Counted from the first letter of the stretch, positions 1 through 59,527 are shown. The stretch is 64,000 nucleotides of DNA from an uncultured Alphaproteobacteria bacterium (GCA_963724565.1 CAVRVK010000007.1:308160-372159); one strand, 5' to 3'. Made by a program: numbers and translations. The notes: generated from the letters alone by a model not told the origin.

Positions 1-907
1 CCCTGAGCGGCGGCGTCTGGGCGCGGCGCGTCGACAGCCGCCGCGAGTGGCGCGCCTTCCGCGAGTACTACACGGAGTACCTGCCGCGCGAGATGCCGCT
101 CGCCGCGCGCGCCCTCCGTGTGCGAGGGGCCCATCGCCTACAAGGGCCAGGCGCTGCTGGAGAAGGATCTCGCCACCTTCAAGGCCGCGCTGGCCGGCGC
201 CAATGTCACCGAGGCGTTCGTGCCGGCGATCGCGCCCGCCATGGTCGGCCGCGGCCAGAACCGCCACTACCCGACCGAGGAAGCCTACGTCTTCGCCCTG
301 GCCGAGGCGCTGCGCACCGAATACCGCGCCATCGTCGACGCCGGCTTCATCCTGCAGATCGACGATCCGGGCCTCGGCGAGACCTGGGACATGCTCAACC
401 CCGCGCCGCCGCTCGAGGACTACCGCAAGATGCAGGCGCGCAATATCGACGCGCTCAACCACGCCCTCGATGGCATCCCCGAGGACCGCGTGCGCTATCC
501 ACCTGTGCTGGGGCAGCTGGCAGGGCCCGCACGTCACCGATCTCAGCCTGCGCGACGTCGTCGACCTGGTGCTGCGCGTGAAGGCGCAGGCCTACTCGGT
601 GGAGGCCGCCACGCCGCGCCATTCGCACGAGTGGCGCCTGTGGGAGGACGTGAAGCTGCCCGACGGCAAGGTGCTGATCCCCGGCGTCATCGCCCACACC
701 ACCGCCGTCGTCGAGCACCCCGAGACCATCGCCGAGCGCATCATGAACTACGCCAAGGTCGTCGGCCGCGAGCGGGTGATGGCGGGCGCCGACTGCGGCT
801 TCGCGCAGGGCGCATTGTTCGAGCGCCAGCACCCGACCGTCATGTGGGCAAAGTTCGAGGCGCTGGTCGAGGGCGCGCGCCTCGCCTCCAAGCGCCTGTG
901 GCGGTGA
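1..907 (+). pseudogene. cobalamin-independent methionine synthase II family protein (MetE C-terminal-like); 5' end outside window, frame broken
   Basis: Collinear translation uses three registers: ...REWRAFREYYTEYLPR (nt 2-~100), CEGPIAYKGQ...FILQIDDPGLGETWDM...EDRVRY (ORF 118..), then HLCWGSWQGPHVTDL...ADCGFAQG...KRLWR (ORF 47..907). The switch near nt 499 looks like one extra c (tatCCacc). Confidence 0.7.
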
Positions 908-1885: not shown

Positions 1886-2470
1886 TCAGTGCGCGACCGC
1901 GCCCGTGCTCGACATCGTCAGCGCCATCAGCACGAACAGCACTCCGATCCCGCCGACGCCCAAAGACCCCCACAACAGATAGACGACCCCCGTGATGAGA
2001 TAGGACGACGCCAGCACGATGGCGATCTGGAAGGCGGCCGAGCCGTACTCGTACTTGTGGTACTTGGCCATGGCGACATCGCGCTTCTTCTCCGCGTCGA
2101 TGGCGCGCACCATCAGCTCCTTGCGCCCCTCGCCCTTGCCGTCGGCCTTGGGCTCCGATTCATAGCGGGCCGCGCGCGTCACCCAACCCTCGATCCGCTT
2201 CTTCAGCAGCTCCTGCGTCGCCGACTCCTTCGCCAGCTTCAGGTCCACCTCCATCTGCTCGGCCGCCGTGTCGGTGAGCGTCTTGCGGATGGTCTTGGCC
2301 TGGAAGAACGCCCACAGGTTCGACGCCTCGACGTTGTAGCTCAGCGCATCGGTCTGCGCGCTTTTGCCGAGCGTCTCGGCGATGGCGAGGAACAGCGCCA
2401 GAATAGAAATGATAATGGCGATCTTCTTGTTCTCGCCCTCGACCAACCCGTGGCCGCCGTGACCCGACAT
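1886..2470 (-). CDS. DUF4337 domain-containing membrane protein
   Basis: Intact 194-aa ORF with a charged/coiled N-terminal two thirds and two C-terminal TM helices (FQIAIVLASSYLITGVVYLLW, IGVLFVLMALTM). Sequence pattern recalled as DUF4337. Confidence 0.75.
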   Translation of the reverse strand: MSGHGGHGLVEGENKKIAIIISILALFLAIAETLGKSAQTDALSYNVEASNLWAFFQAKTIRKTLTDTAAEQMEVDLKLAKESATQELLKKRIEGWVTRAARYESEPKADGKGEGRKELMVRAIDAEKKRDVAMAKYHKYEYGSAAFQIAIVLASSYLITGVVYLLWGSLGVGGIGVLFVLMALTMSSTGAVAH

Positions 2471-2624
2471 CCCTCAGTCTCCTCCCTTGACCTCGCGCGC
2501 AGCGCACGCCGGCATCGCGCCGATCCCCCGTCCGTCTACGCACGGAAGCGCCATTAAGCGCAATCCGATGACGGCGCCAAGATAAAAACGCAAATCTGCT
2601 GCCTGGGTATTGCGAGGGACCAGC

Positions 2625-3305
2625 CTAGACGACCGTCACCTCCAGGTCGCCGACGCCCTCGACATGGCCTTTCAGCCTGTCGCCCTTCTGGATGGCGCCC
2701 ACTCCCGCAGGGGTGCCGGTGAAGATCAGGTCGCCGGCCTTCAGCTCGAACAGCGTGGACAGGAACGCGATCTGGTTGGGGATGTCCCAGATCATCTGGG
2801 AGAGGTCGCCCGTCTGCTCGCGCGCTCCGTTGACCTCGAGCCAGATCGCCCCCTTGCTCGGGCTCTCGACATGCTGCGCCGGCACCAGCGCGGTACACGG
2901 CGCCGAACACTCGAAGGCCTTGGCGACTTCCCAGGGCCGCGCCAGCTTCTTGGCCGCGTCCTGCAGGTCGCGCCGGGTCATGTCGATGCCGACCGCATAG
3001 CCGAACACGTGGCGCATGGCATCGGCCGCGTCGATGTTTGTGCCGCCGGACTTCAGCCCCACCACCAGCTCGATCTCGAAGTGAACGTTCTTGGTCGCCG
3101 GCGGATAGGGAAACTTGCCGTCCACCACGACGTTGTCGGGGTTCTTTTGAAAGAAGAACGGCGGGTCCTTGGTGTCGCCGCCCATCTCCTTGGTGTGCTC
3201 TGCGTAGTTGCGGCCGACGCAATAGATGCGGTGGATGGGAAACAGCTTGTCGGAACCCTTGATCGGCAAAGTCGGCTGGGCAATTGGCGTGAACGCGTAG
3301 GTCAT
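2625..3305 (-). CDS. fumarylacetoacetate hydrolase (FAH) family protein
   Basis: Intact 226-aa ORF. FAH-fold signatures IYCVGRNYAEH, FFFQK, FEIELVVGL, DLIFTGTPAGVG. Confidence 0.85.
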   Translation of the reverse strand: MTYAFTPIAQPTLPIKGSDKLFPIHRIYCVGRNYAEHTKEMGGDTKDPPFFFQKNPDNVVVDGKFPYPPATKNVHFEIELVVGLKSGGTNIDAADAMRHVFGYAVGIDMTRRDLQDAAKKLARPWEVAKAFECSAPCTALVPAQHVESPSKGAIWLEVNGAREQTGDLSQMIWDIPNQIAFLSTLFELKAGDLIFTGTPAGVGAIQKGDRLKGHVEGVGDLEVTVV

Positions 3306-3430
3306 GGGCAGCGCCTCTTTCGGGTGGAGCTAACCCCTTTCTAGCAGAGAACCCTGCCGGCAGTCGCGCACATGTGAAGCCGGAAAATGATCGGCCGGCG
3401 CGTTGCACTGCCGGGAAACGGATGTGTCCC

Positions 3431-4039
3431 ATGATCACGCCCTATCGCATCGGCCACATTGTTCTGGCTGCAAGCCTTGCGCTTCTCGCCTTACCGCACG
3501 CGGCCAACGCCCGCGGTGGCCACGGTGGCCTGGGTAGCACGGGTGGCCGGACGGGAGCTGCGATGGCTCATCTGCCGGCGCCGCTGGCAATCCAGGCTCC
3601 GGGTGCAACTGCCCCCAAGCAAGCCGTTTCGCCGCAGGCGAGCTCGTCACCGACAACCGCGGCAGCAGCCAACGCCTCGCTCGCGGCTGCGGCCGCCGCT
3701 GCGCCGGCGTCTCCCCCGGCAGTGCCGATCAATACCCTGCCGCCTTCGGCCATTAGCACCCCGTTGCCGGAGATGGCGCCCCTAGCCCCGCTGTCGCCCG
3801 TGCCGGATTCAGCGGTCCTGTCCGGCGGTGGCCCGGTGATGCCGGCCAATACCAACCAATCGTCAGCAACGCCGACCAGCACCAGCCCCTTCGAGTCGGC
3901 GCCCAGCACGCCGGGTGGCGGCGCCGATACAATCGAGGCCTGCATGGGGTTCTGGGATGCACAGACGCACATGAGCAAGCGCGAGTGGCACACGGCCTGC
4001 CAGCGTATTCAGAACCGTTTCGCCGGGCTGAAGGGTTGA
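3431..4039 (+). CDS. secreted Ala/Pro/Ser-rich hypothetical protein with C-terminal C-x18-C module
   Basis: ORF 3374..4039; likely start ATG 3431 (MITPYRIGHIVLAASLALLALPHAANA, signal-like). Long low-complexity A/P/S centre. Conserved-looking tail CMGFWDAQTHMSKREWHTACQRIQNRF. Confidence 0.5.
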   Translation: MITPYRIGHIVLAASLALLALPHAANARGGHGGLGSTGGRTGAAMAHLPAPLAIQAPGATAPKQAVSPQASSSPTTAAAANASLAAAAAAAPASPPAVPINTLPPSAISTPLPEMAPLAPLSPVPDSAVLSGGGPVMPANTNQSSATPTSTSPFESAPSTPGGGADTIEACMGFWDAQTHMSKREWHTACQRIQNRFAGLKG

Positions 4040-22659: not shown

Positions 22660-24009
22660 TCACGCCCGGCGAACGAGGCGCGCCACGTAGAAGCCATCGA
22701 GGCCGGAGAGCTCGGCCGGCTCGAGCGGCAGGTGGCAGGGGAGCGTCCTCAAGTCGCCCGCCGCGCTGATCCACGAGGGGTCGGCGCCGAGCTCGCGGGG
22801 CTCGATGGGCAGGCGGTGGAACGCCTCGTTGTCCGAGAGAAACGCCGCGATCTGCTGCTCGCCCTCCTCGGGCTCCAGCGAGCACGTGCTGTAGATCAGC
22901 CGGCCGCCAGGGCTCACGAGACGGGCGGCGTTAGCGAGCAGCGCGCGCTGGACCTCGGCCATACGCGCAATGTCCTGTGGCTGCCGCAGACGCAGAATGT
23001 CGGGATGCCGGCGGATGGTGCCGGTGGCGGTGCAGGGGGCGTCCAGGACAACGACGTCGAAGGCGCGGCTGGGCGCCCAGGTCGCGGCGTCGGCGGCGAC
23101 CACCTCGGCTTGCAGGCCCAGTCGCTGCAGATTGGTGGTGAGGCGTTCCAGGCGCTTGGGTGAAACTTCGACCGCGGTCACTGCCGCGCCGGCAGCCGCC
23201 AGCGCCGCTGTCTTGCCGCCGGGTGCCGCGCACAGATCGGCGACCGAGCGCCCGGCAACTTCGCCCGCCGCCCGCGTGACGAGAGCGGCGGCTGCGTCCT
23301 GCACCCACCATGCGCCCTCGGCATAGCCCGGCAGGTCCTCGACCCGCCCTGGCGCCGCAACCCGGATCGACCCGGTCGGCAGCAGGCGGCCGCCCAGCTT
23401 TTCTGCCCAGGCCGATACTTCGGTGGGCGCGGCGGTTTTCAGCGAAATATCGAGCGCCGCCTCCCTCAAGCTCGCTTCGCCGATGCGGCGGGCCATGTCT
23501 TGGCCGTAGGCCGTCTCCCAGCGCCTGAGCAGCCAGGCGGGGACATTGACCGCGACGGGATCGACATCCCGCAAAAGCTCCGCGCCCTTGTCGGCGACGC
23601 GTCGGAGCACGGCATTGACGAGACCGGCGAACTTCGCCCCGCCGCGCACATGGCGCACAGCCCCGACCGCCAGGTCGACAGCGGCGTGCGGCGGAGTGCC
23701 GAGGCAGACGAGCTGCGCCGCGCCGGTGAGCAGAATGGGCCGAACTGCGCTTTCCCGCGGAAGCGGCCGCTCGAGGAACGCGCCAAGCACGTGCTCCAGT
23801 TCCCCCTGCCGTCGCAACACAGTCGCGGCGAGGGCACGGGCGAAGGCGCGGTCACGCGCATCGAGTCCGGCGAACCTTGGGTCGCCCCCGAGGTCCGCCA
23901 GCACCTGTTCGAGAGGGCGCCCCTGCAGCAATACCCCGCCAACTAGCCGGTGCGCCAGATCGCGTGCTGCTACGCCTGCCGGCGCACCGCTGTTGGGTTG
24001 CGCGGACAC
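22660..24009 (-). CDS. rsmB: 16S rRNA (cytosine967-C5)-methyltransferase RsmB/Sun family
   Basis: Intact ORF 22660..24090. NusB-like N-terminal half, then DLCAAPGGKT, VLDAPCTATGTIRRHPD, YSTCSLEPEEGE. Start is uncertain; GTG 24009 avoids overlap with htpX. Confidence 0.8.
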   Translation of the reverse strand: MSAQPNSGAPAGVAARDLAHRLVGGVLLQGRPLEQVLADLGGDPRFAGLDARDRAFARALAATVLRRQGELEHVLGAFLERPLPRESAVRPILLTGAAQLVCLGTPPHAAVDLAVGAVRHVRGGAKFAGLVNAVLRRVADKGAELLRDVDPVAVNVPAWLLRRWETAYGQDMARRIGEASLREAALDISLKTAAPTEVSAWAEKLGGRLLPTGSIRVAAPGRVEDLPGYAEGAWWVQDAAAALVTRAAGEVAGRSVADLCAAPGGKTAALAAAGAAVTAVEVSPKRLERLTTNLQRLGLQAEVVAADAATWAPSRAFDVVVLDAPCTATGTIRRHPDILRLRQPQDIARMAEVQRALLANAARLVSPGGRLIYSTCSLEPEEGEQQIAAFLSDNEAFHRLPIEPRELGADPSWISAAGDLRTLPCHLPLEPAELSGLDGFYVARLVRRA

Positions 24010-24041
24010 GCGCTGCCCGTGCGCCGGCTTACCCTTGGGCC

Positions 24042-25013
24042 TCAGCCCCACGGACCGCGGCGCGGCCTCTCGGGCGCCCCTCCACCCCAAGGGCCGGAGG
24101 CGGCCGGAGGCGGGCCGGAGCGCGAAGCCTGCGGCACCCGCGAGGCGCCGGGCCCAAGCTCGGCCGCCAACTGCTCCAGCGCGGCGACGCGGTTTTCCGT
24201 GTTGGGATGGGTGGAGAACAGGTTGTCCATGCCCTGGCCGTTAAGGGGATTGATGATGAACAGGTGCGCGGTGCCGGGCGCGGCCTCCGCCTGCTCGTTG
24301 GGGATGCCGCGGGCGTAGTGCTCGATGTTGCGCAGCGCGGAGGCGAGCCACATCGGGTTGCCGCAGATCATGGCGCCCAGCCGGTCGGCCTGATACTCGC
24401 GCGAGCGGCTCACCGCCATCTGCACGAGCATCGCCGCCATCGGCGCCACGATCGCCGCGATCAGCGCGACGATCCAATGCCCGCCGCCCTGGTTGTCGCG
24501 ATGGCCGCCGAAGATGGCGCCGAACTGCATGTATTGCGCCAGCATCGACACGGCGCCACCGACGGTCGCCGCCACCGCCATGGTCAGCGTGTCGTAGTTT
24601 TTCACGTGCGCCAGCTCGTGCGCCATGACGCCTGACACCTCCTCCGGCGACAGCATCTCGAGCAGTCCCGTGGAGGCGCACACGGCGGCGTTCTGCGGAT
24701 TGCGGCCAGTTGCGAAAGCGTTGGGCTGCGGATTGTTCATGATGTAGACGCGCGGCATCGGCAGCTGCGCCCGCGCCACGAGGTCGCGCACGATTGAGTA
24801 GTATTGCCCGCCGCTGCTGGCATCGACCTCCTCGGCACCGTACATGCGCAGCACCAGCTTGTCGGACTGCCACAGGCTGAACATGTTCATCACCACGGCG
24901 ATGACAAAGGCAATGGCCATGCCGCCCGGCCCGGCGAACAGCCAGCCGAGGGCGACGAAGATACCCGTCAACACCGCCAACAGCAGGCCGGTCTTGGCGA
25001 AGTTCATCGGCAT
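24042..25013 (-). CDS. htpX: zinc metalloprotease HtpX (M48 family)
   Basis: Intact; start ATG 25013 ([17 protein letters not shown]). [10 protein letters not shown] zinc motif, [10 protein letters not shown], four TM segments, Gly/Pro-rich tail. Confidence 0.9.
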
Positions 25014-25259
25014 CGATCGATCCTTGGGATAGGGTGCTCCTCTGCCACCCGCGATAGGCGTGGGCAGCAATCACAATATGGTGTGGCGGGGTTTCGTCGG
25101 CCAGGGTCTGCAGGGCCCGCTTGCACAGTCATCGCATGCCCGGCGGCCGCGGCCGACGCAACGGCGCCACTGCAGGCTACGACGACCCGCGCGTGCTGGC
25201 TACGGCGGGAACTACGGGGTGTGCGTCAAAAGCCGTCCCCAGGGACCGGAAAGCCCCGC

Positions 25260-25291
25260 AAAAAAGAAATCGGCGCCCGCGGAGGGGCGCC
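25260..25291 (-). terminator. rho-independent terminator of small peptide gene 1
   Basis: Minus strand reads GGCGCCC-CTCCGC-GGGCGCC followed by GATTTCTTTTTT, 45 nt after the peptide stop codon. Confidence 0.7.
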
Positions 25292-25335
25292 AAGTTCATC
25301 TCACAGGGGAGGAGCTCGAAACTAAGCGAGTTTGT

Positions 25336-25458
25336 TCAGTTCATGTTGGTGTCGTGGTCGATCCAGTACTGCTGCGAGCCGAAGGTGGCGGCCTGGGCGG
25401 AACCCATTGCACCGGCCAGAACCGTGAGCACGACAAGGGCGGAGAGCAACTTCTGCAT
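25336..25458 (-). CDS. small secreted peptide precursor, 40 aa (paralog 1); not in the ORF track
   Basis: ATG 25458 preceded by AGGAGA at -7. MQKLLSALVVLTVLAGAMGSAQA|ATFGSQQYWIDHDTNMN*. Sec-type signal with AQA-A site; own terminator. A paralog at 26744..26869 has an identical C-terminal 15 residues. Confidence 0.65.
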   Translation of the reverse strand: MQKLLSALVVLTVLAGAMGSAQAATFGSQQYWIDHDTNMN

Positions 25459-25615
25459 GGTAATTCTCCTGTTTCTAGAGCGCTACCGGCTACCCACCGG
25501 CGGCTGATCAGAAGATGGCACCGCGCCGCCCGCGCCGCTGTGCTTTGCAGCACAGGTCAGCGCTGCAGGCGCGAAGCACCAGAAAAACAATGCCTCAGCT
25601 GCAATATTCGCCACC

Positions 25616-26278
25616 CTAGGCGGCCTTCAACATGTCTTCCTTGTCCAGCCCCTCCTGCACGATCCGCATCTCTGCCGCCGGGTACTCCCGCGCCAGCGCG
25701 AATGCCTCGTCGGGCGGCCCCCTGAGCCAGGTCTCGAACTCGTCCTCCCGTGTCAGCAGCACGGGCATGCGCTCGTGATTGACGGTGGCGATTAGCGAAT
25801 TGGGCGTCGTCGTCAGGAACGCGTAGGTCTCGATATCGACATTGGGCCCGTCCTTCTTCAGCGGTCCCCGGTAGCGGCGCCAGATGCCTGGAAAGGCAAA
25901 CAGCGGGCGCGAGCCTTCGCCTTTGATGGCGAACCAGTGCCACGTCGCGGGCTTCACACCGCCGTTCGGCTCGCAGAACGCGCCGGCCGGCACCAGGCAG
26001 CGCCGCATTTGGAAGCTCTCGCGCCAGAAGCCCGTGATCACCTTGTCGTCGCGCACGTTGGTCACGGGCTTCGGCGCGCGGCCCTGCTGCAGCAGCATGA
26101 AGCCCCAGCTCATCATCACCATCTCACGGTCGCCGTCGGCGGCCGAGCGCACCACTGGCGCCATGTAGCGGGGGAAGATGCCCGGCAGCGGATCGAAGGC
26201 GACGGCGCGGTTGTGCGAGACGCGGAAGAACCGCGCCACCACGTTTTGCTTCGGCGTCAGCGAATAGAGGTTGCACAC
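25616..26278 (-). CDS. SOS response-associated peptidase (SRAP/DUF159, YedK-like)
   Basis: Starts GTG-TGC ((M)CNLYS, the catalytic Cys2 position). Blocks PRYMAPVV, MSWGF, RCLVPAGAFCE, FAFPGIW, NHERMPVLL. Intact to the stop at 25616. Confidence 0.85.
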   Translation of the reverse strand: MCNLYSLTPKQNVVARFFRVSHNRAVAFDPLPGIFPRYMAPVVRSAADGDREMVMMSWGFMLLQQGRAPKPVTNVRDDKVITGFWRESFQMRRCLVPAGAFCEPNGGVKPATWHWFAIKGEGSRPLFAFPGIWRRYRGPLKKDGPNVDIETYAFLTTTPNSLIATVNHERMPVLLTREDEFETWLRGPPDEAFALAREYPAAEMRIVQEGLDKEDMLKAA

Positions 26279-26321
26279 CTGAGCGAGCTTCCCACACCGG
26301 CACTGGCCGTGCCTTGACGAT

Positions 26322-26336
26322 GTTCCTATTATGTTC
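26322..26336. promoter_or_regulatory. alphaproteobacterial-type LexA (SOS) box GTTC-N7-GTTC
   Basis: GTTCctattatGTTC sits within a 10-bp direct repeat (atgttcctat x2). It is 44 nt upstream of the SRAP GTG, and on the + strand lies between a TTGACG -35-like hexamer (26314-19) and a TATGTT -10-like hexamer (26338-43) that overlaps the ATG at 26339. Confidence 0.6.
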
Positions 26337-26338
26337 CT

Positions 26339-26584
26339 ATGTTGGATAGCATGCAGCAAGACAGGCTGGCCAGCTACCCCTTCCCGATTGTGCGCATCGC
26401 CTGCCGCTACTGCAGAAGGCGCGGCCAATACCCCCTCGAAAGCCTTGTGCGCAAGTACGGCGCCGACGCCAGCCTGTCGAACGTGTTGAGGAAGGTCTCC
26501 TCCGATTGCGCGCTGTCCGGCAACAGGACCAGCAAGCGCGGGTGTCTCGGCGCTTACCTGCCGGACGTGGAAAGAAAAAGGTAG
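26339..26584 (+). CDS. small basic Cys4 protein (CxxC...C-x11-C), hypothetical
   Basis: 81-aa ORF divergent from the SRAP gene: MLDSMQQDRLASYPFPIVRIACRYCRRRGQYPLESLVRKYGADASLSNVLRKVSSDCALSGNRTSKRGCLGAYLPDVERKR. Start ATG 26339 or 26351. I recall similar CxxCxRxG...L...DC...C mini-proteins in alphaproteobacteria, but no named family. Confidence 0.45.
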   Translation: MLDSMQQDRLASYPFPIVRIACRYCRRRGQYPLESLVRKYGADASLSNVLRKVSSDCALSGNRTSKRGCLGAYLPDVERKR

Positions 26585-26670
26585 CGCAACGGCCTATAGC
26601 AACGATGACATGGGCCGCGCGGCAAACCGCCAACACCGTGCCATGACGAGAAAAGCAGTCGACCCAACGC

Positions 26671-26702
26671 AAAAAAAAGAAATCGGCGCCCACAAGGGCG
26701 CC
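26671..26702 (-). terminator. rho-independent terminator of small peptide gene 2
   Basis: Minus strand reads GGCGCCC-TTGT-GGGCGCC followed by GATTTCTTTTTTTT, 42 nt after the peptide stop. Confidence 0.7.
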
Positions 26703-26743
26703 GGTTCCTTCAACAGACCTGTTCAGCTCAGTTACGAGCCTAC

Positions 26744-26869
26744 TCAGTTCATGTTGGTGTCGTGGTCGATCCAGTACTGCTGCGAACCGAAGGACGCGGC
26801 CTGCGCGGAGGTGGCGGCGACGCCGGCCAGAACCGACAGGGCAACCAAGGTCGAAAGGATGGTCTTCAT
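26744..26869 (-). CDS. small secreted peptide precursor, 41 aa (paralog 2); not in the ORF track
   Basis: ATG 26869 preceded by GGAGAA. MKTILSTLVALSVLAGVAATSAQA|ASFGSQQYWIDHDTNMN*. The last 47 nt are identical to paralog 1. The length difference between paralogs is exactly 3 nt. Confidence 0.65.
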   Translation of the reverse strand: MKTILSTLVALSVLAGVAATSAQAASFGSQQYWIDHDTNMN

Positions 26870-27038
26870 GATCATTCTCCAGCGTTTGAGTGTTGTTTGA
26901 CTTGCTCATCCGAGCCTTCCCGGCTCGTGAGTTGAAGATAGGTAGCTCTGCCCGAGCTGAAAGGCAGGTTCACCGACCTGTGATGAACAGTGATCAGGCG
27001 CTCGACCGGAATGCGCGATGGGTCGCTCTAAGACCTTG

Positions 27039-27068
27039 GAAAAAGGCAGTGCGCTTATCACGCGCACT
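27039..27068 (-). terminator. probable rho-independent terminator of the lipoprotein gene
   Basis: Minus strand reads AGTGCGC-GTGATAA-GCGCACT followed by GCCTTTTTCC, starting 3 nt after the TAG at 27071-27073. Confidence 0.55.
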
Positions 27069-27070
27069 CG

Positions 27071-28405
27071 CTACTGCGGGGCGACGTACACTGTTGGCGT
27101 GAGGGGAAGGGCGTTGCGCTTGGTGCTCAGGTTCACCAGCACATTGAGCAGCACGAACACTTGCTTGGTGTTGTTGGCTCCCTGGTTCGGCACGCAATAC
27201 AAGCCGCTGTCGTGCGCAGCGCGCGCGAAGCAGTCGCCGCGCATCCCTTTCTGGATCGTCAGCAGCGTGCTGTCTCCCGTCGGCAGCCGGATCGTTCTGG
27301 CATCGAACAGCTTGACCCGCTCGGCCGTTTCCGTTGCCAGCAGCCGACCGTAATACTGAAAGACGGCATAGGGCGACCGCATGACAGGCAGGACGCCCTT
27401 CACTTGCGGGCCGATCCCGCGGAAAATCGGATTGGTTGCAGAGAAGTGTCCCGAGCCGCACGCCAACGACGGGTGCACGATGCGGCCGTACTCCTGTGCC
27501 ACGGCCGGGTCGAAGCACATCACCACGCGCGACACCATCTTGGGCTGGGTCTTGTCGCCGCGCGCCAGGTGATTTGGCACCAGCTGCGGCTGCGTAGTCA
27601 TGCCGTATTCCAGGGCGGCACGTAGAAAATACAGGAACTTCTGATACACGCAGTCGCGCGCGTGCTGGCCCGACCACAAAGTGTTGGCGAAGGGCGAGCC
27701 GAAGGCGCCCCGTTGCGACAGCTGCTCGCACTGCCGGCGCTGCTCGGGGCCTTGCTGCCCCAGCCAGCCGTCGTTGGCGGGATCGTTCTGATATTCGAAT
27801 ACGGTTCCATCGGCCCGTACGACGCGAACACCCTTGACAATGGAATGCAGCACCAGCTCGCGGGATATGCCTGCATTGACCAGGAGATTGATGGTCTGAA
27901 TATCGAGCGGGCTGAGGAACTGGCCGTAGAAGTCCTGGTTCTCGAGCGGGGCGACGTCGAAGTTTGCCGATGTGTTCACTTTCGCGCTGGGGGTAACCAC
28001 GCCCCTGACCACGCTCGTGGTCGCCGTCACACCGCTTCCAACGGGGCCCTTGTTCAGGATGTCGTACATCAAGCCCTGGTTGCTGGTGACCTGCAGATTG
28101 CCCTCGACAATTCCGGAGGCGTTGTATTTCGACAGCGCCATGAAATTCATCGGCTCGAAGCGACTCGCGCGCACGATATTCAGCAGGATGCTGTCCTCGC
28201 GCAGATTGCCCGAGCCGATGTTGACTGCGGTGCCGCGATCGTTGAGCGTAGATTCAACTGCCGTGCAGGCCGTAAGGATGCAGGCGAAAAGAGCGCAGAG
28301 CGCCGGCAGCGCGCGCAAGCATGACGGACGGCGGCGCTGAACGCCAACAACGCGGCCGGCGCGAACTAGGCAAGCAGCGCCAAGCCCTACACCAACAGAA
28401 CGCAT
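27071..28405 (-). CDS. large lipoprotein of unknown function
   Basis: Intact 444-aa ORF. Lipobox ...ALFACILTAC|TAVEST; the start codon is uncertain because the N-extension is long. Lower G+C than neighbours (about 60-62% in hand-counted 60-mers). I cannot place any domain. Confidence 0.6.
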   Translation of the reverse strand: MRSVGVGLGAACLVRAGRVVGVQRRRPSCLRALPALCALFACILTACTAVESTLNDRGTAVNIGSGNLREDSILLNIVRASRFEPMNFMALSKYNASGIVEGNLQVTSNQGLMYDILNKGPVGSGVTATTSVVRGVVTPSAKVNTSANFDVAPLENQDFYGQFLSPLDIQTINLLVNAGISRELVLHSIVKGVRVVRADGTVFEYQNDPANDGWLGQQGPEQRRQCEQLSQRGAFGSPFANTLWSGQHARDCVYQKFLYFLRAALEYGMTTQPQLVPNHLARGDKTQPKMVSRVVMCFDPAVAQEYGRIVHPSLACGSGHFSATNPIFRGIGPQVKGVLPVMRSPYAVFQYYGRLLATETAERVKLFDARTIRLPTGDSTLLTIQKGMRGDCFARAAHDSGLYCVPNQGANNTKQVFVLLNVLVNLSTKRNALPLTPTVYVAPQ

Positions 28406-28679
28406 ACGCGACCCCGGAACTTCCTTTACAGATCAAGACTTGAGCATGCGCAGGAAGCCGCGTGAAGTTTCCAGGGCATCCGATGCGGAAAGTGGGAGAG
28501 CCGTTGTTGCGCAAATAGCACGCTCCGAGGACGTAGCGTTGTGCGACCCGCAATATTCACACCCCTGGGCTCGGCGCGGCTCCTGTTTGCAGCCTTGCCG
28601 GCCTAGCATCGCATCAACCATCGCAAAACCGTTGCAGACCCGCAGTTAAGGATGGGCGTCGCCTGCGCTGGAGGGAAGC

Positions 28680-42101: not shown

Positions 42102-42854
42102 CTACAGCTGCCGCATCAGCGCTGCGCCGATGATGGGCCCGGCCTGCCCCTGCTGCACGAGCACCGCGCACCGCTCGGCATCCTTCTGCATGAAGGTGTG
42201 CCGCTCCAGCTGAACGCTCGTGGCCTTGCCGCTCCACAAACCGATCGGGATCAGCTCGCGCACCACGTTGGAATACGTGATGGTCTTGCCCCTGTTCTCG
42301 CCGCGCGTGATCGGCACTTCCACAGCACTCGACATCACCGCCAGCCAAATGGTGGCTTCCTTCACAGAAGCACCAGGCGGGGCAGCACCGACATCGACGA
42401 CCAGCTTGTCGGCCGACATGGACATGCGTACGGGCACGTGCGCGACCGACTTGGCCATCTTTTCGAGCGCACGCTCCACCTTGGCCTCGTCGCTGCCGTT
42501 CACGTGGGCGAGGCCGTTGATCACCATTTGCGGGGTATAGACCATGCCGTCGCCGAGCACCTTGGCGTAGGCCTTCTGCCGCTCGGAGAATTTCGCCTGC
42601 GCCAGCGTGTCCTTCCAGCCGAGGTAGTCCCAGTAGTCCACGGAGAGCGAGATGGCGATCACGTCATCGCGCTTGGCCAGACGCGCGAGCAGCGCATCGG
42701 CTGCGGGACAGGAGGAGCAACCCTGGCTGGTGAACAGCTCCACCACGCCCGTGACGGCGGCGGAAACGGAGCTGGGCTGAGCCGCACTTTGGGCGTTTGC
42801 AGGCCCAAAGGCCGCAAGCCCGATCCCGAGCACAATAAGTGCCAACGTGCGCAT
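42102..42854 (-). CDS. DUF1223 domain-containing secreted protein (thioredoxin-like)
   Basis: ATG 42854 (MRTLALIVLGIGLAAFGPANA signal). FTSQGCSSCPAAD, DYWDYLGWKD, YTPQMVING. Confidence 0.8.
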   Translation of the reverse strand: MRTLALIVLGIGLAAFGPANAQSAAQPSSVSAAVTGVVELFTSQGCSSCPAADALLARLAKRDDVIAISLSVDYWDYLGWKDTLAQAKFSERQKAYAKVLGDGMVYTPQMVINGLAHVNGSDEAKVERALEKMAKSVAHVPVRMSMSADKLVVDVGAAPPGASVKEATIWLAVMSSAVEVPITRGENRGKTITYSNVVRELIPIGLWSGKATSVQLERHTFMQKDAERCAVLVQQGQAGPIIGAALMRQL

Positions 42855-43005
42855 CAGCTTGGCAATTCCTTCCATCGTGGCGGCAGCGGACGCACCGAAT
42901 ATCGGGATTCCACCGATCAAGTGCGAGTCACGAATGGGTGAGACACCGTGTCCTGACTTTTCGCACGACTGCAAGTCGGCCCGAGTGGCTAACGCGCAGA
43001 AGAGG

Positions 43006-59078: not shown

Positions 59079-59527
59079 TCAGCCCTTCGACTTGCCGATC
59101 TCGATCTTGCGCACCGACCGCTCCGGCTCGCGCCGCGCCAGGTCGATGGACAGCAATCCGTCGCTGAGATCGGCCGATTTCACCTCGATGCCGTCGGCCA
59201 ACACGAACGTCCGGCTGAACTGGCGCGCGGCGATGCCGCGGTGGATGTACTGCCGGGACCTGTCGTCCTCCTGGCGGCCGCGGATGCTGAGCTGGTTGTC
59301 CTCGACCGTGATCTCGATCTGGTCGCGCTTGAAGCCGGCGACCGCCAGCGTGATGCGCAGCAGCTCGGCAGTGCCGGGCTGCCGTTCCGTTGCGCCTCGG
59401 CGCCGATGCGCTCGATGTTGTAGGGGGGATAGCCGTCGCCGCCGCCCTTGCCGACGCGGTCGATCAGCCGTTCCATGTCCTCAAAGCCCAGCAGCAGCGG
59501 GCTCGACAGCAGTGACATGCGCGTCAT
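59079..59527 (-). pseudogene. Hsp20/alpha-crystallin family small heat-shock protein, one frame switch
   Basis: MTRMSLLSSPLLLGFEDMERLIDRV...YPPYNIERIG, then after a register change ...LRITLAVAGFKRDQIEITVEDNQLSIRGRQEDD...YIHRGIAARQFSRTFVLADGIEV...LLSIDLAR... Confidence 0.8.

Follow-up and report, generated by a model that had tools for sequence, protein, structure and literature searches.

The entericidins EcnA and EcnB of Escherichia coli are encoded by tandem paralogous genes as pre-lipoproteins of 41 and 48 residues; they carry a lipobox cysteine, are lipid-anchored after cleavage by signal peptidase II, and are tied to an OmpR-family two-component system of the cell envelope and to stress. 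Here, we describe two similarly small genes, P1 and P2, on a stretch of 64,000 nucleotides (nt) from an uncultured alphaproteobacterium (GCA_963724565.1, CAVRVK010000007.1:308160-372159), which was analyzed as a whole and is called the window below. In anatomy, the entericidin pair appears to be their closest known counterpart: both are adjacent paralogous genes of about 40-50 codons for an export signal followed by an envelope peptide of about 20-25 residues, and both involve OmpR-family envelope regulation, which is a prediction in the case of P2. Unlike the entericidins, P1 and P2 have no Cys and carry an A-x-A site for signal peptidase I, there is no sequence similarity and no Pfam entericidin match, and the family to which they belong forms arrays of up to five copies. 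In regulation, the closest cases seem to be srlA of Sinorhizobium meliloti and the genes of the CenKR regulon of Rhodobacter sphaeroides, which appear to share with P2 a TCA/TGA-N8-TGA (TCAC-N6-GTGA) box upstream of a weak -35 element, oriented with transcription, and a product with a signal peptide, the -35 element and the signal being predictions in P2. SrlA itself, however, is a much larger, unrelated protein with a thioredoxin fold, and the box of P2 lies further upstream and is accompanied by an additional TCAC half-site.

Other small peptides resemble P1 and P2 in part. The genes for Phr, PapR and NprX of Firmicutes lie beside those for their receptors (Rap, PlcR and NprR), and the peptides are re-imported in these Gram-positive bacteria; like P1 and P2 they start as precursors of about 40 residues with a Sec signal and a short polar C-terminal part, which in Firmicutes holds the active peptide, whereas the family described here has no recurrent partner gene and Gram-negative alphaproteobacterial hosts. 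MgrB, AcrZ and MgtS, which are uncleaved, single-copy small membrane-protein regulators, are comparable in size, in their single hydrophobic helix and in their envelope-related two-component control (predicted here), but lack the conserved cleavage motif, the tail motifs and the tandem arrays of this family. The conotoxins and similar animal toxin and antimicrobial-peptide superfamilies are eukaryotic, Cys-rich and equipped with pro-regions, and are alike in evolutionary pattern only, the signal being much more conserved than the mature peptide. Judged by sequence comparison, none of the described families against which it could be checked seems to include it.

We consider the chances somewhat better than even that P1 and P2 are Sec-exported periplasmic peptides cleaved by signal peptidase I, and that P2 belongs to an envelope-stress regulon through a CenR-type box. 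Each gene would give a pre-peptide of about 40 residues, of which the N-terminal 23-24 would serve as a Sec-type signal peptide; signal peptidase I would cut after a small-x-small site (AQA-A in P1 and P2) and release into the periplasm a hydrophilic, slightly acidic 17-mer with the fixed motif F-G-S-x-x-Y/F-W-x-E/D-H/R-D-x-N-x-N. P2 would be expressed from a sigma-70-type promoter with a weak -35 element, dependent on an upstream TCAC-N6-GTGA box and on the OmpR-family cell-envelope regulator CenR, or one of the same specificity, and its mRNA would carry a 5' stem-loop, a strong ribosome-binding site and its own terminator. The input to P1 is probably different, because its upstream dyad differs from the P2 block, and the polycistronic arrays of two to five copies in relatives would suggest a need for high output. 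The genes, the family, the arrays, the conserved promoter block and the 3' gene conversion described below are supported by sequence evolution. Very small secreted proteins are routinely missed or called 'hypothetical', and in Gram-negative bacteria the role of only a few is known; the anatomy of this family is unusually clear, with its near-invariant signal, short motif-bearing products, arrays and rigid promoter block.

The genes P1 and P2 and their family

Both genes lie on the minus strand, P2 at 26744..26869 and P1 at 25336..25458. Read directly from the window, both open reading frames (ORFs) stand where an earlier reading made from the sequence alone (the sequence-only reading) had placed them and translate as it had claimed. 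P2 encodes a 41-residue pre-peptide (MKTILSTLVALSVLAGVAATSAQAASFGSQQYWIDHDTNMN, divided into MKTILSTLVALSVLAGVAATSAQA and ASFGSQQYWIDHDTNMN), with the signal part at 26798..26869, the predicted mature 17-mer at 26747..26797 and the stop codon at 26744..26746, and P1 a 40-residue one (MQKLLSALVVLTVLAGAMGSAQAATFGSQQYWIDHDTNMN, divided into MQKLLSALVVLTVLAGAMGSAQA and ATFGSQQYWIDHDTNMN). The difference in length of 3 nt and the identity of the 15 C-terminal residues are likewise as described. The Shine-Dalgarno sequence GGAGA, reported 6-7 nt before the ATG, lies exactly 6 nt ahead of it in both genes (minus strand, 26880..26876 for P2 and 25469..25465 for P1), and the start context GGAGA(A/T)TGATCATG recurs throughout the family. 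From a second in-frame ATG at 26875 some pipelines call a 43-residue form of P2 ('MIMKT...'); the 41-residue start is the likely one, because the ATG at 26875 abuts the Shine-Dalgarno sequence. A separate terminator for each gene, claimed at about 45 nt past the stop, was found to begin 41-43 nt past it. The intrinsic terminator of P2 (26674..26703, minus strand) consists of an 8-bp all-GC stem at 26703..26684 and a U tract, that of P1 (25260..25293, minus strand) of a 9-bp stem at 25293..25270 and a U tract; the 3' half, GGGCGCCGATTTCTTTTTT, is identical in both, and the terminator regions fold with -32 kcal/mol (z = -3.8) for P2 and -25 kcal/mol (z = -2.7) for P1. The similarity between the two genes extends from about 90 nt 5' of the ATG through the terminator end. 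No further family copy was found in the window, no Cys occurs in P1, P2 or the 45 relatives listed in full, and an Rfam scan of 24000..28500 at E <= 1 returned only a chance MicX match, far below threshold.

The sequence-only reading had taken P1 and P2 for real, translated paralogues, and the pattern of substitutions, with its third-position excess and a low ratio of nonsynonymous to synonymous change (pN/pS) in this frame only, agrees. Among 14 relatives of the same length, the variable sites are distributed 15/11/32 over the three codon positions, and pN/pS in the signal part is 0.17 in the annotated frame but rises to 1.8 and 3.4 when the two remaining sense frames are read. In 110 unique sequences, the first 16 codons give 0.22 in the annotated frame and 0.45 to 10 in the five others, antisense included. 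For the mature core, where the calculation was anchored on the motif since tails vary in length, pN/pS is 0.49 in the FDAK type and 0.75 in the FGS type. Here, amino acids fixed through many synonymous changes stand beside freely varying positions: the Asp column of the motif has pN 0 and pS 0.95 and the Phe column pN 0 and pS 0.81, some of the fixed columns being part of the pattern used for picking the sequences and the conserved ones outside it being Q, D and R in the FDAK type and the terminal N in the FGS type. On this comparative evidence P1 and P2 are translated genes; the earlier observation is confirmed, and its interpretation is supported as essentially right.

Conservation beyond this genome was looked for, and a large family was found in which the frame is kept and the antisense frames show no constraint beyond the usual complementary-phase effect. 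The 41-residue P2 query alone retrieved 47 proteins of 39-71 residues, all but one of them of 39-56; the closest 40 of the 47 match at E <= 6e-5, and one, P0001, is identical to P2. As this exact protein is present in the NCBI/ENA predicted-protein sets, the description of the genes as unannotated holds for the ORF track then used and not for the public record. With a profile of diverse members, 2879 clusters were found at 90% identity; HMMER, run exhaustively over 1.84 billion representatives, gave 477 at 50% identity. The two genes of the sequence-only reading, both real, are only two members of a very large family that often forms tandem arrays. All its members are tiny, and none is part of a larger protein as a domain; those longer matches that were inspected either fuse neighbouring copies by read-through or extend upstream beyond the family ATG. 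Thus, at L013 (3686..3958), at L014 and in P0048-P0053, 'proteins' of 90-98 residues are two tandem peptide genes fused through loss of the first stop codon, and P0282 has two mature motifs in one peptide.

The family could be matched to no named one, in agreement with the sequence-only reading: with P1, P2 and three distant relatives, Pfam-A and NCBIfam gave nothing near the cut-off, the best matches (E = 0.007-0.2) covering the signal peptide only. The read-through fusion P0050 carries a precomputed assignment to PF28279.1, which is absent from the Pfam copy used and may be a very recent model. Member names go no further than 'hypothetical', save for a few automatic labels from the Joint Genome Institute (RcnB, YxeA) that have no Pfam support. 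RcnB/YohN ('Ni/Co efflux regulator RcnB') was considered and rejected, there being no RcnB match even at E <= 10 and the peptides having 38-43 residues against about 110 in the domain protein; this label appears to be an automatic assignment without detectable basis. A full-text literature search for the peptide strings found nothing. All 17 loci confirmed in species-representative genomes are in uncultured alphaproteobacterial metagenome-assembled genomes (MAGs), namely Microflora Danica bins, Hyphomicrobiaceae and one Hyphomonadaceae; one MAG holds at least eight family copies at four loci. In 72,556 plasmids, tblastn with two peptides of the family as queries gave no match. As far as these searches reach, the family is large and undescribed, and uncultured soil Alphaproteobacteria are its only hosts seen so far.

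The signal peptide, MKTI[LV]S[AT]L[VL]ALSVLAG, is nearly invariant and far more conserved than the mature part, which has 13-20 residues in most members and comes in several subtypes: FGSxx[YF]W[IV]E[RH]DxNxN, to which P1 and P2 belong, FDAKxF[YW]EQxDRxx[YN], which is the commonest, ..EQLDKEGRGGH.. and ..GQSSPL. Of 57 complete loci, 32 are single-copy and 25 have two to five copies, each preceded by GGAGA and separated by spacers of typically 31-50 nt (median 47 nt). A terminator-like hairpin stands behind 32 of 63 last genes but in only 3 of 60 internal spacers, so the arrays are probably polycistronic. Clustering of all flanking ORFs across non-orthologous loci revealed no recurrent partner gene, and no candidate maturase, transporter, receptor or immunity gene lies next to the loci. 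This extends to the whole family what had been claimed for the window, namely that no maturation, transport or immunity gene is adjacent, since no neighbour recurs outside orthologous loci. The P0075 arrays, which have an acyl-CoA-synthetase-like gene on one side and a convergent DUF6352 gene on the other, are a case of such orthologous synteny only; two copies (L006 and L007) lie amid recombinase, transposase and integrase genes.

On metagenome contigs in ENA, both genes are called, with 41 and 40 residues, in the gene order of the window: a 415-residue protein, P2, an 81-residue ORF on the other strand, an SOS-response-associated peptidase (SRAP), P1, HtpX and RsmB. P1 is called as a 40-residue gene on contigs L001 and L002. 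It has an orthologue in L004, a related MAG locus with flanks of 88-94% identity to the window, and this locus served for a comparison of the two halves of the genes. The sequence-only reading had given the last 47 nt of P1 and P2 as identical and seen in this a sign of selection. The identical run is 42 nt long (14 codons including the stop), the preceding Gly codon differing (GGC against GGT), and its cause seems to be another one. Between P1 of the window and P1 of L004 there are no differences in the signal part (48 nt) and eight in the mature part (54 nt), and between the two P2 genes two and eight; P1 and P2 differ from each other at 16 and three positions in the window and at 16 and seven in L004. 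Because the signal part groups by orthologue and the mature part by genome, this mosaic indicates that the 3' half was homogenised between the paralogues of the window, with recent gene conversion in this lineage as the simplest cause. The synonymous-site identity of the 3' ends therefore is not evidence for selection, and in general identical paralogue ends that may come from gene conversion, as here, should not be read in that way.

The promoter block and its candidate regulator

The 444-codon gene upstream of P2 is followed by a terminator-like hairpin at 27068..27048, and P2 must therefore own a promoter. On the minus strand, the 24-nt operator TCACTGTTCA-TCACAGGTCGGTGA at 26970..26993 ends in the 14-mer TCACAGGTCGGTGA (26983..26970), which reads TCAC-N6-GTGA and resembles a CenR box, with an additional TCAC 10 bp upstream. 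Six nt after the box begins the putative core promoter (26935..26963, minus strand), composed of a -35-like CTTTCA at 26963..26958, a 17-nt spacer and a -10-like TATCTT at 26940..26935. Near the predicted 5' end of the mRNA, a stem-loop CGAGCC-GGGAA-GGCUCG (26905..26931, minus strand; -14.6 kcal/mol, z = -2.4) precedes a CA-rich unstructured leader. The same block stands ahead of the first gene in most arrays, in the order TCAC-N6-TCAC-N6-G[TC]GA, 6 nt, CTT[TC][TC]C (-35-like), 17 nt, [CT]AT[ACT]T[CT] (-10-like), about 8 nt, stem-loop, CA-rich leader and GGAGA. The 24-nt operator pattern has one match in the window (26993..26970), where 0.02 are expected. Of 27 loci, 16 contain it, each a single time, and in those inspected it precedes the first peptide gene. 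The distance from box to -10 element is 29 nt in 55 of 59 family promoters; most of the 59 have an equivalent 5' hairpin, whose stem sequences differ with compensating changes, and 56 have leaders that fold better than their shuffles. A scan of metagenomes for the block yielded at least 120 stretches, about 60 of them with the full block, and the genes downstream belong to this family and its variants, to a non-secreted family of about 87 residues and to a family of about 89 residues.

The region upstream of P1 (25512..25553, minus strand) is built differently, with a dyad GTGCTGCAAAGCAC(AGC) at 25553..25537 and a -10-like CATCTT at 25517..25512; in general form, GTGC-N6-GCAC(AGC) lies about 20 nt ahead of a -10-like CATC[TC]TC. 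About 100 nt upstream of P1 are conserved with L004 despite a different upstream gene, and the dyad is also found upstream of the family genes in L006 and L007 (3904..3920). In L016 such a dyad (85..101) is followed after about 170 nt by the Met of a long ORF, which from there has about 390 residues, with a family-like signal peptide and an HEIGH zinc-protease motif.

CenKR is an essential or near-essential regulator of the envelope and of cell division, of whose regulon in Hyphomicrobiales very little is known. For S. meliloti, gel shifts and promoter mutagenesis demonstrated binding of CenR to AGTCAC-N6-GTGACT beside the -35 element of srlA, the TCA being critical (PMC9561847, PMC11328730). 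In R. sphaeroides, 31 sites supported by chromatin immunoprecipitation are T[CG]AC-N6-GTGA-like, 28 of them directly upstream of a -35 element and pointing with transcription, and most CenR-regulated genes encode signal-peptide or envelope proteins (PMC9275681). The box of P2 matches the S. meliloti consensus AgTCAC--C--cGTgAct in both arms, and by this motif match we infer that it is best explained as the site of CenR or of a regulator with the same specificity; a CenR paralogue of like specificity, such as EssR of Brucella (PMC10746171), would fit equally well. The only experimentally established Hyphomicrobiales target of CenR named in PMC9561847, PMC11328730 and PMC9275681 is srlA. If the box is a CenR site, these genes and the other small proteins sharing the block would be new members of the regulon and offer a set of compact, testable promoters and products. 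The proposed link of the family to a CenR-type box is new.

A weight matrix built solely from the 31 R. sphaeroides sites was run over both strands of the window (127,972 positions). The highest score falls at 42927..42941 on the minus strand (TCACCCATTCGTGAC), upstream of the gene for a secreted DUF1223 protein with a CxxC motif, and the second at 3364..3378 on the plus strand (TCGCGCACATGTGAA), upstream of a secreted low-complexity ORF. The P2 operator ranks fifth (13th when read with transcription), and overlapping matches at 25070..25085 upstream of htpX rank sixth, at 25071..25085, and tenth (TCACAATATGGTGTG and ACACCATATTGTGAT); ranks 7 and 8, inside the start of a heat-shock-like ORF, look like chance. 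The four top places are all non-coding and lie upstream of genes for exported or membrane proteins, a combination that is hard to get by chance, bacterial DNA being mostly coding.

Other regulators were compared with the P2 block and rejected. The alphaproteobacterial LexA box, GTTC-N7-GTTC, fails because the second GTTC is not conserved, the Pho box because its period is 11 bp and that of the operator 10, and the PpsR/CrtJ motif TGTCA-N8-TGACA because the outer T and A are not conserved; CRP/FNR-type boxes have their half-sites in the opposite order. The motifs published for ChvI, TTGC-N3-GCAA and GCC-N8-GCC, do not fit the P2 box (PMC9731502). For RpoH (sigma-32), the -10 element fits the CCATNT-like pattern (TATCTT in P2, CATATC in most relatives), and it was rejected because the -35 element, CTT[TC][TC]C, has no TTG, substitutions in which cut RpoHI activity by at least 80% (PMC3441632).

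Predicted export, alternatives and possible function

The sequence-only reading had proposed a Sec-type signal with an AQA-A cleavage site. By inspection, P1 and P2 have Lys as their second residue, followed by an uncharged core of about 16 residues and the small-x-small site AQA-A. Almost all of 106 distinct peptides retain the small residues at -3 and -1 while the c-region around them varies (AQA, ASA, AKA, VAA, VSA, ANA), with Pro frequent at -4/-5. By the usual sequence rules, a Sec-type signal and signal peptidase I would thus yield a 17-residue periplasmic peptide, in line with that proposal. Three special readings of the product were set aside. Precursors of ribosomally synthesized and post-translationally modified peptides (PqqA, MftA, methanobactin, lasso) do not fit the Sec-type N-terminus, and there is neither a recurrent neighbour nor a model match. 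An EF-hand-like or lanthanide-tag-like role of D-x-D-x-N-x-N is contradicted by most relatives having E-R-D-x-N-x-N and by the FDAK subtype, which is without the pattern, and tyrosine sulfation at D-Y by Phe in place of Tyr in several members.

Several points weigh against periplasmic peptides under CenR-type control. The uncharged N-terminal stretch is long enough for an uncleaved membrane anchor. The CenR motif is poor in information: in its bare form, T[CG]AC-N6-GTGA, it has four matches in the window against 3.1 expected, which is no enrichment. Several other regulator motifs had been compared by eye before that of CenR was found to fit. The box of P2 lies about 7 bp further upstream than at srlA (centred near -42), which puts it on a different helical face; no CenR-like box was found in the upstream region of P1; and the block also drives unrelated non-secreted small proteins, so that the regulon would not be purely one of the envelope. 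The hosts are known only as MAGs, and all the support comes from sequence analysis.

Four rival explanations were ranked by likelihood, from an uncleaved membrane protein, through an extracellular signal or antagonist and a type I toxin, to a non-coding element. According to the first, which we regard as unlikely, the products are single-pass inner-membrane proteins (N-terminus inside, tail periplasmic) whose helix modulates a larger membrane protein as MgrB, AcrZ or MgtS do. This would agree with the hydrophobic segment being the most constrained part (pN/pS 0.17-0.22 against 0.5-0.8 in the tail) and common to subfamilies with dissimilar tails (FGS..YW, FDAK.FYEQQDR, ..EGRGGH, ..GQSSPL), with small residues (S, T, A, G) recurring along the helix and with an uncharged stretch of up to 21-26 residues; the single long helix predicted by AlphaFold2 from the alignment (predicted local distance difference test score 77) is uninformative and lends it weak support. 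An anchor would not need the -3/-1 pattern, however, which is kept amid varying neighbours and together with Pro at -4/-5 is typical of signal peptidase I; the strictly conserved motif positions imply that the tails are functional too, and tandem near-identical copies are unusual for stoichiometric regulators. That the peptides instead act between cells, as a pheromone-like signal or a bacteriocin-like antagonist, is improbable in our estimate. A conserved export signal on a fast-changing mature part would be explained, and so would multi-copy arrays that differ among close relatives, the mobile-element contexts of some copies (L006, L007) and the homogenised 3' mature-coding part of P1 and P2. 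Yet no immunity, outer-membrane exporter, receptor or processing gene recurs beside any locus. Membrane-active bacteriocins differ from these peptides, which are anionic and hydrophilic; in Gram-negative bacteria a Sec signal leads no further than the periplasm; and selection on the mature part is, on balance, purifying (pN/pS 0.5-0.8) and not clearly diversifying.

It is very improbable that we are dealing with small hydrophobic toxins of type I, silenced by antisense RNA like those of the tandem ldr and ibs loci of E. coli, with which the family shares a size of about 40 residues, a hydrophobic helix and chromosomal tandem copies; an SRAP gene lies between P1 and P2, and another near the L006 copy, which could be counted in its favour. 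The strong Shine-Dalgarno sequence at optimal spacing, the conservation of both cleavage motif and polar tail motif, and array spacers of typically 31-50 nt (median 47), which leave no room for antisense genes, all speak against it, as do the lack of a conserved antisense promoter or frame beyond the usual complementary-phase effect and the lack of an Rfam match. Finally, we give hardly any credit to the notion that the ORFs are untranslated and the conserved DNA is a small RNA or repeat, in favour of which only their small size and the hairpin at either end can be cited. The substitutions are frame-specific, amino acids are kept through many synonymous changes, the Shine-Dalgarno sequence and start context are conserved, and no Rfam family matches.

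Coming back to secreted, signal-peptidase-I-cleaved periplasmic peptides, their role can be guessed at. A bulk role is argued against by the fixed positions of the mature motif, and high output is argued for by the arrays, the strong Shine-Dalgarno sequence, the 5' hairpin and the terminator. Our guess is that the peptide acts in envelope homeostasis by sequence-specific contact with a partner; it might be the ligand of a protein in the periplasm or membrane, or modulate such a protein by feedback. A more specific and improbable extension of this would see a superfamily defined by its signal peptide, whose interchangeable, sequence-specific ligands of 13-20 residues signal in the periplasm the state of an envelope sensor, for instance CenK, or act back on it. 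Such feedback would resemble SrlA, a secreted protein that autorepresses its own CenR-dependent promoter, and, if true, it would mean a peptide-based layer of control over an essential envelope system of Alphaproteobacteria.

Other candidate sites, neighbouring genes and products of the block

The top-ranking CenR-matrix site has a further TGA half-site 11 nt downstream. The gene behind it (42102..42863, minus strand) encodes a protein with a signal peptide and a DUF1223 match (Pfam E = 1e-68), which fits the description of SrlA (thioredoxin fold, CxxC, signal peptide), orthology being unconfirmed; DUF1223 is never named in the main texts of PMC9561847, PMC11328730 and PMC9275681 or in the supplements of one of them. 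The second-ranking site is located between two divergent genes, some 55 nt upstream of ORF 3431..4039, whose product of 202 residues is rich in Ala, Pro and Ser and has a signal peptide, a Cys-containing C-terminal motif (CMGFWDAQTHMSKREWHTACQR) and no Pfam family. The matrix match at htpX (24042..25016, minus strand), the gene of an M48 protease, lies 55-70 nt upstream of it, between it and the P1 terminator. The heat-shock-like ORF at 59180..59527 (minus strand) begins like a small heat-shock protein (..LLLGFEDMERL..GYPPYNIE..) and continues with low-complexity sequence and no Pfam match, which suggests a frameshift or a sequencing error.

Around P1 and P2, the upstream neighbour of P2 (27071..28405, minus strand) is a 444-residue protein with a lipoprotein-like N-terminus (..LFACILTAC) and no Pfam family. 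Between P2 and P1 lies the SRAP gene (25616..26272, minus strand), and between P2 and this gene the Cys-rich 81-residue ORF at 26339..26584 (plus strand), which is preceded by a sigma-70-like promoter (26314..26343), counts as a gene in the annotation of the ENA contigs and has no family; the segment of about 300 nt that carries it is missing from L004. In L006, an SRAP gene (2281..2988) is found about 1 kb from an independent family copy, amid recombinase, exonuclease and integrase genes, which may be coincidence.

The promoters of a subtype B, at L012, L061, L098 and L146 and less perfectly at L021-L027, have a dyad such as TTTTGCACCGCAAAA between -35 and -10. This dyad matches TTGC-N3-GCAA, proposed for Caulobacter ChvI (PMC9731502); at the same place, the P2 promoter has AGCTC-N5-GAGCT instead. 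Neither of the two further families behind the block matches Pfam or NCBIfam. The non-secreted protein of about 87 residues follows a block of the form TCACTGTTCGTCAC-N6-GTGACGG ... CTATAT at L040, L095, L100, L125, L126, L127, L133 and L135, on contigs of about 60% GC, and has the pattern M..AWTVKD.KGELLP.F.AGS..EVGRK...RYDAFRL.VS.SYRE.FDRD...LELKLN. The products behind the block at L069, L079, L042, L065, L072, L102, L130 and L145 include the protein of about 89 residues (RRR..AWLL..DD.RLL.FGL.PEDI), which is reminiscent of DUF1127, secreted peptides with one or two ..EQLDKEGRGGH.. repeats and a secreted protein with F..L.DTAPRS repeats.

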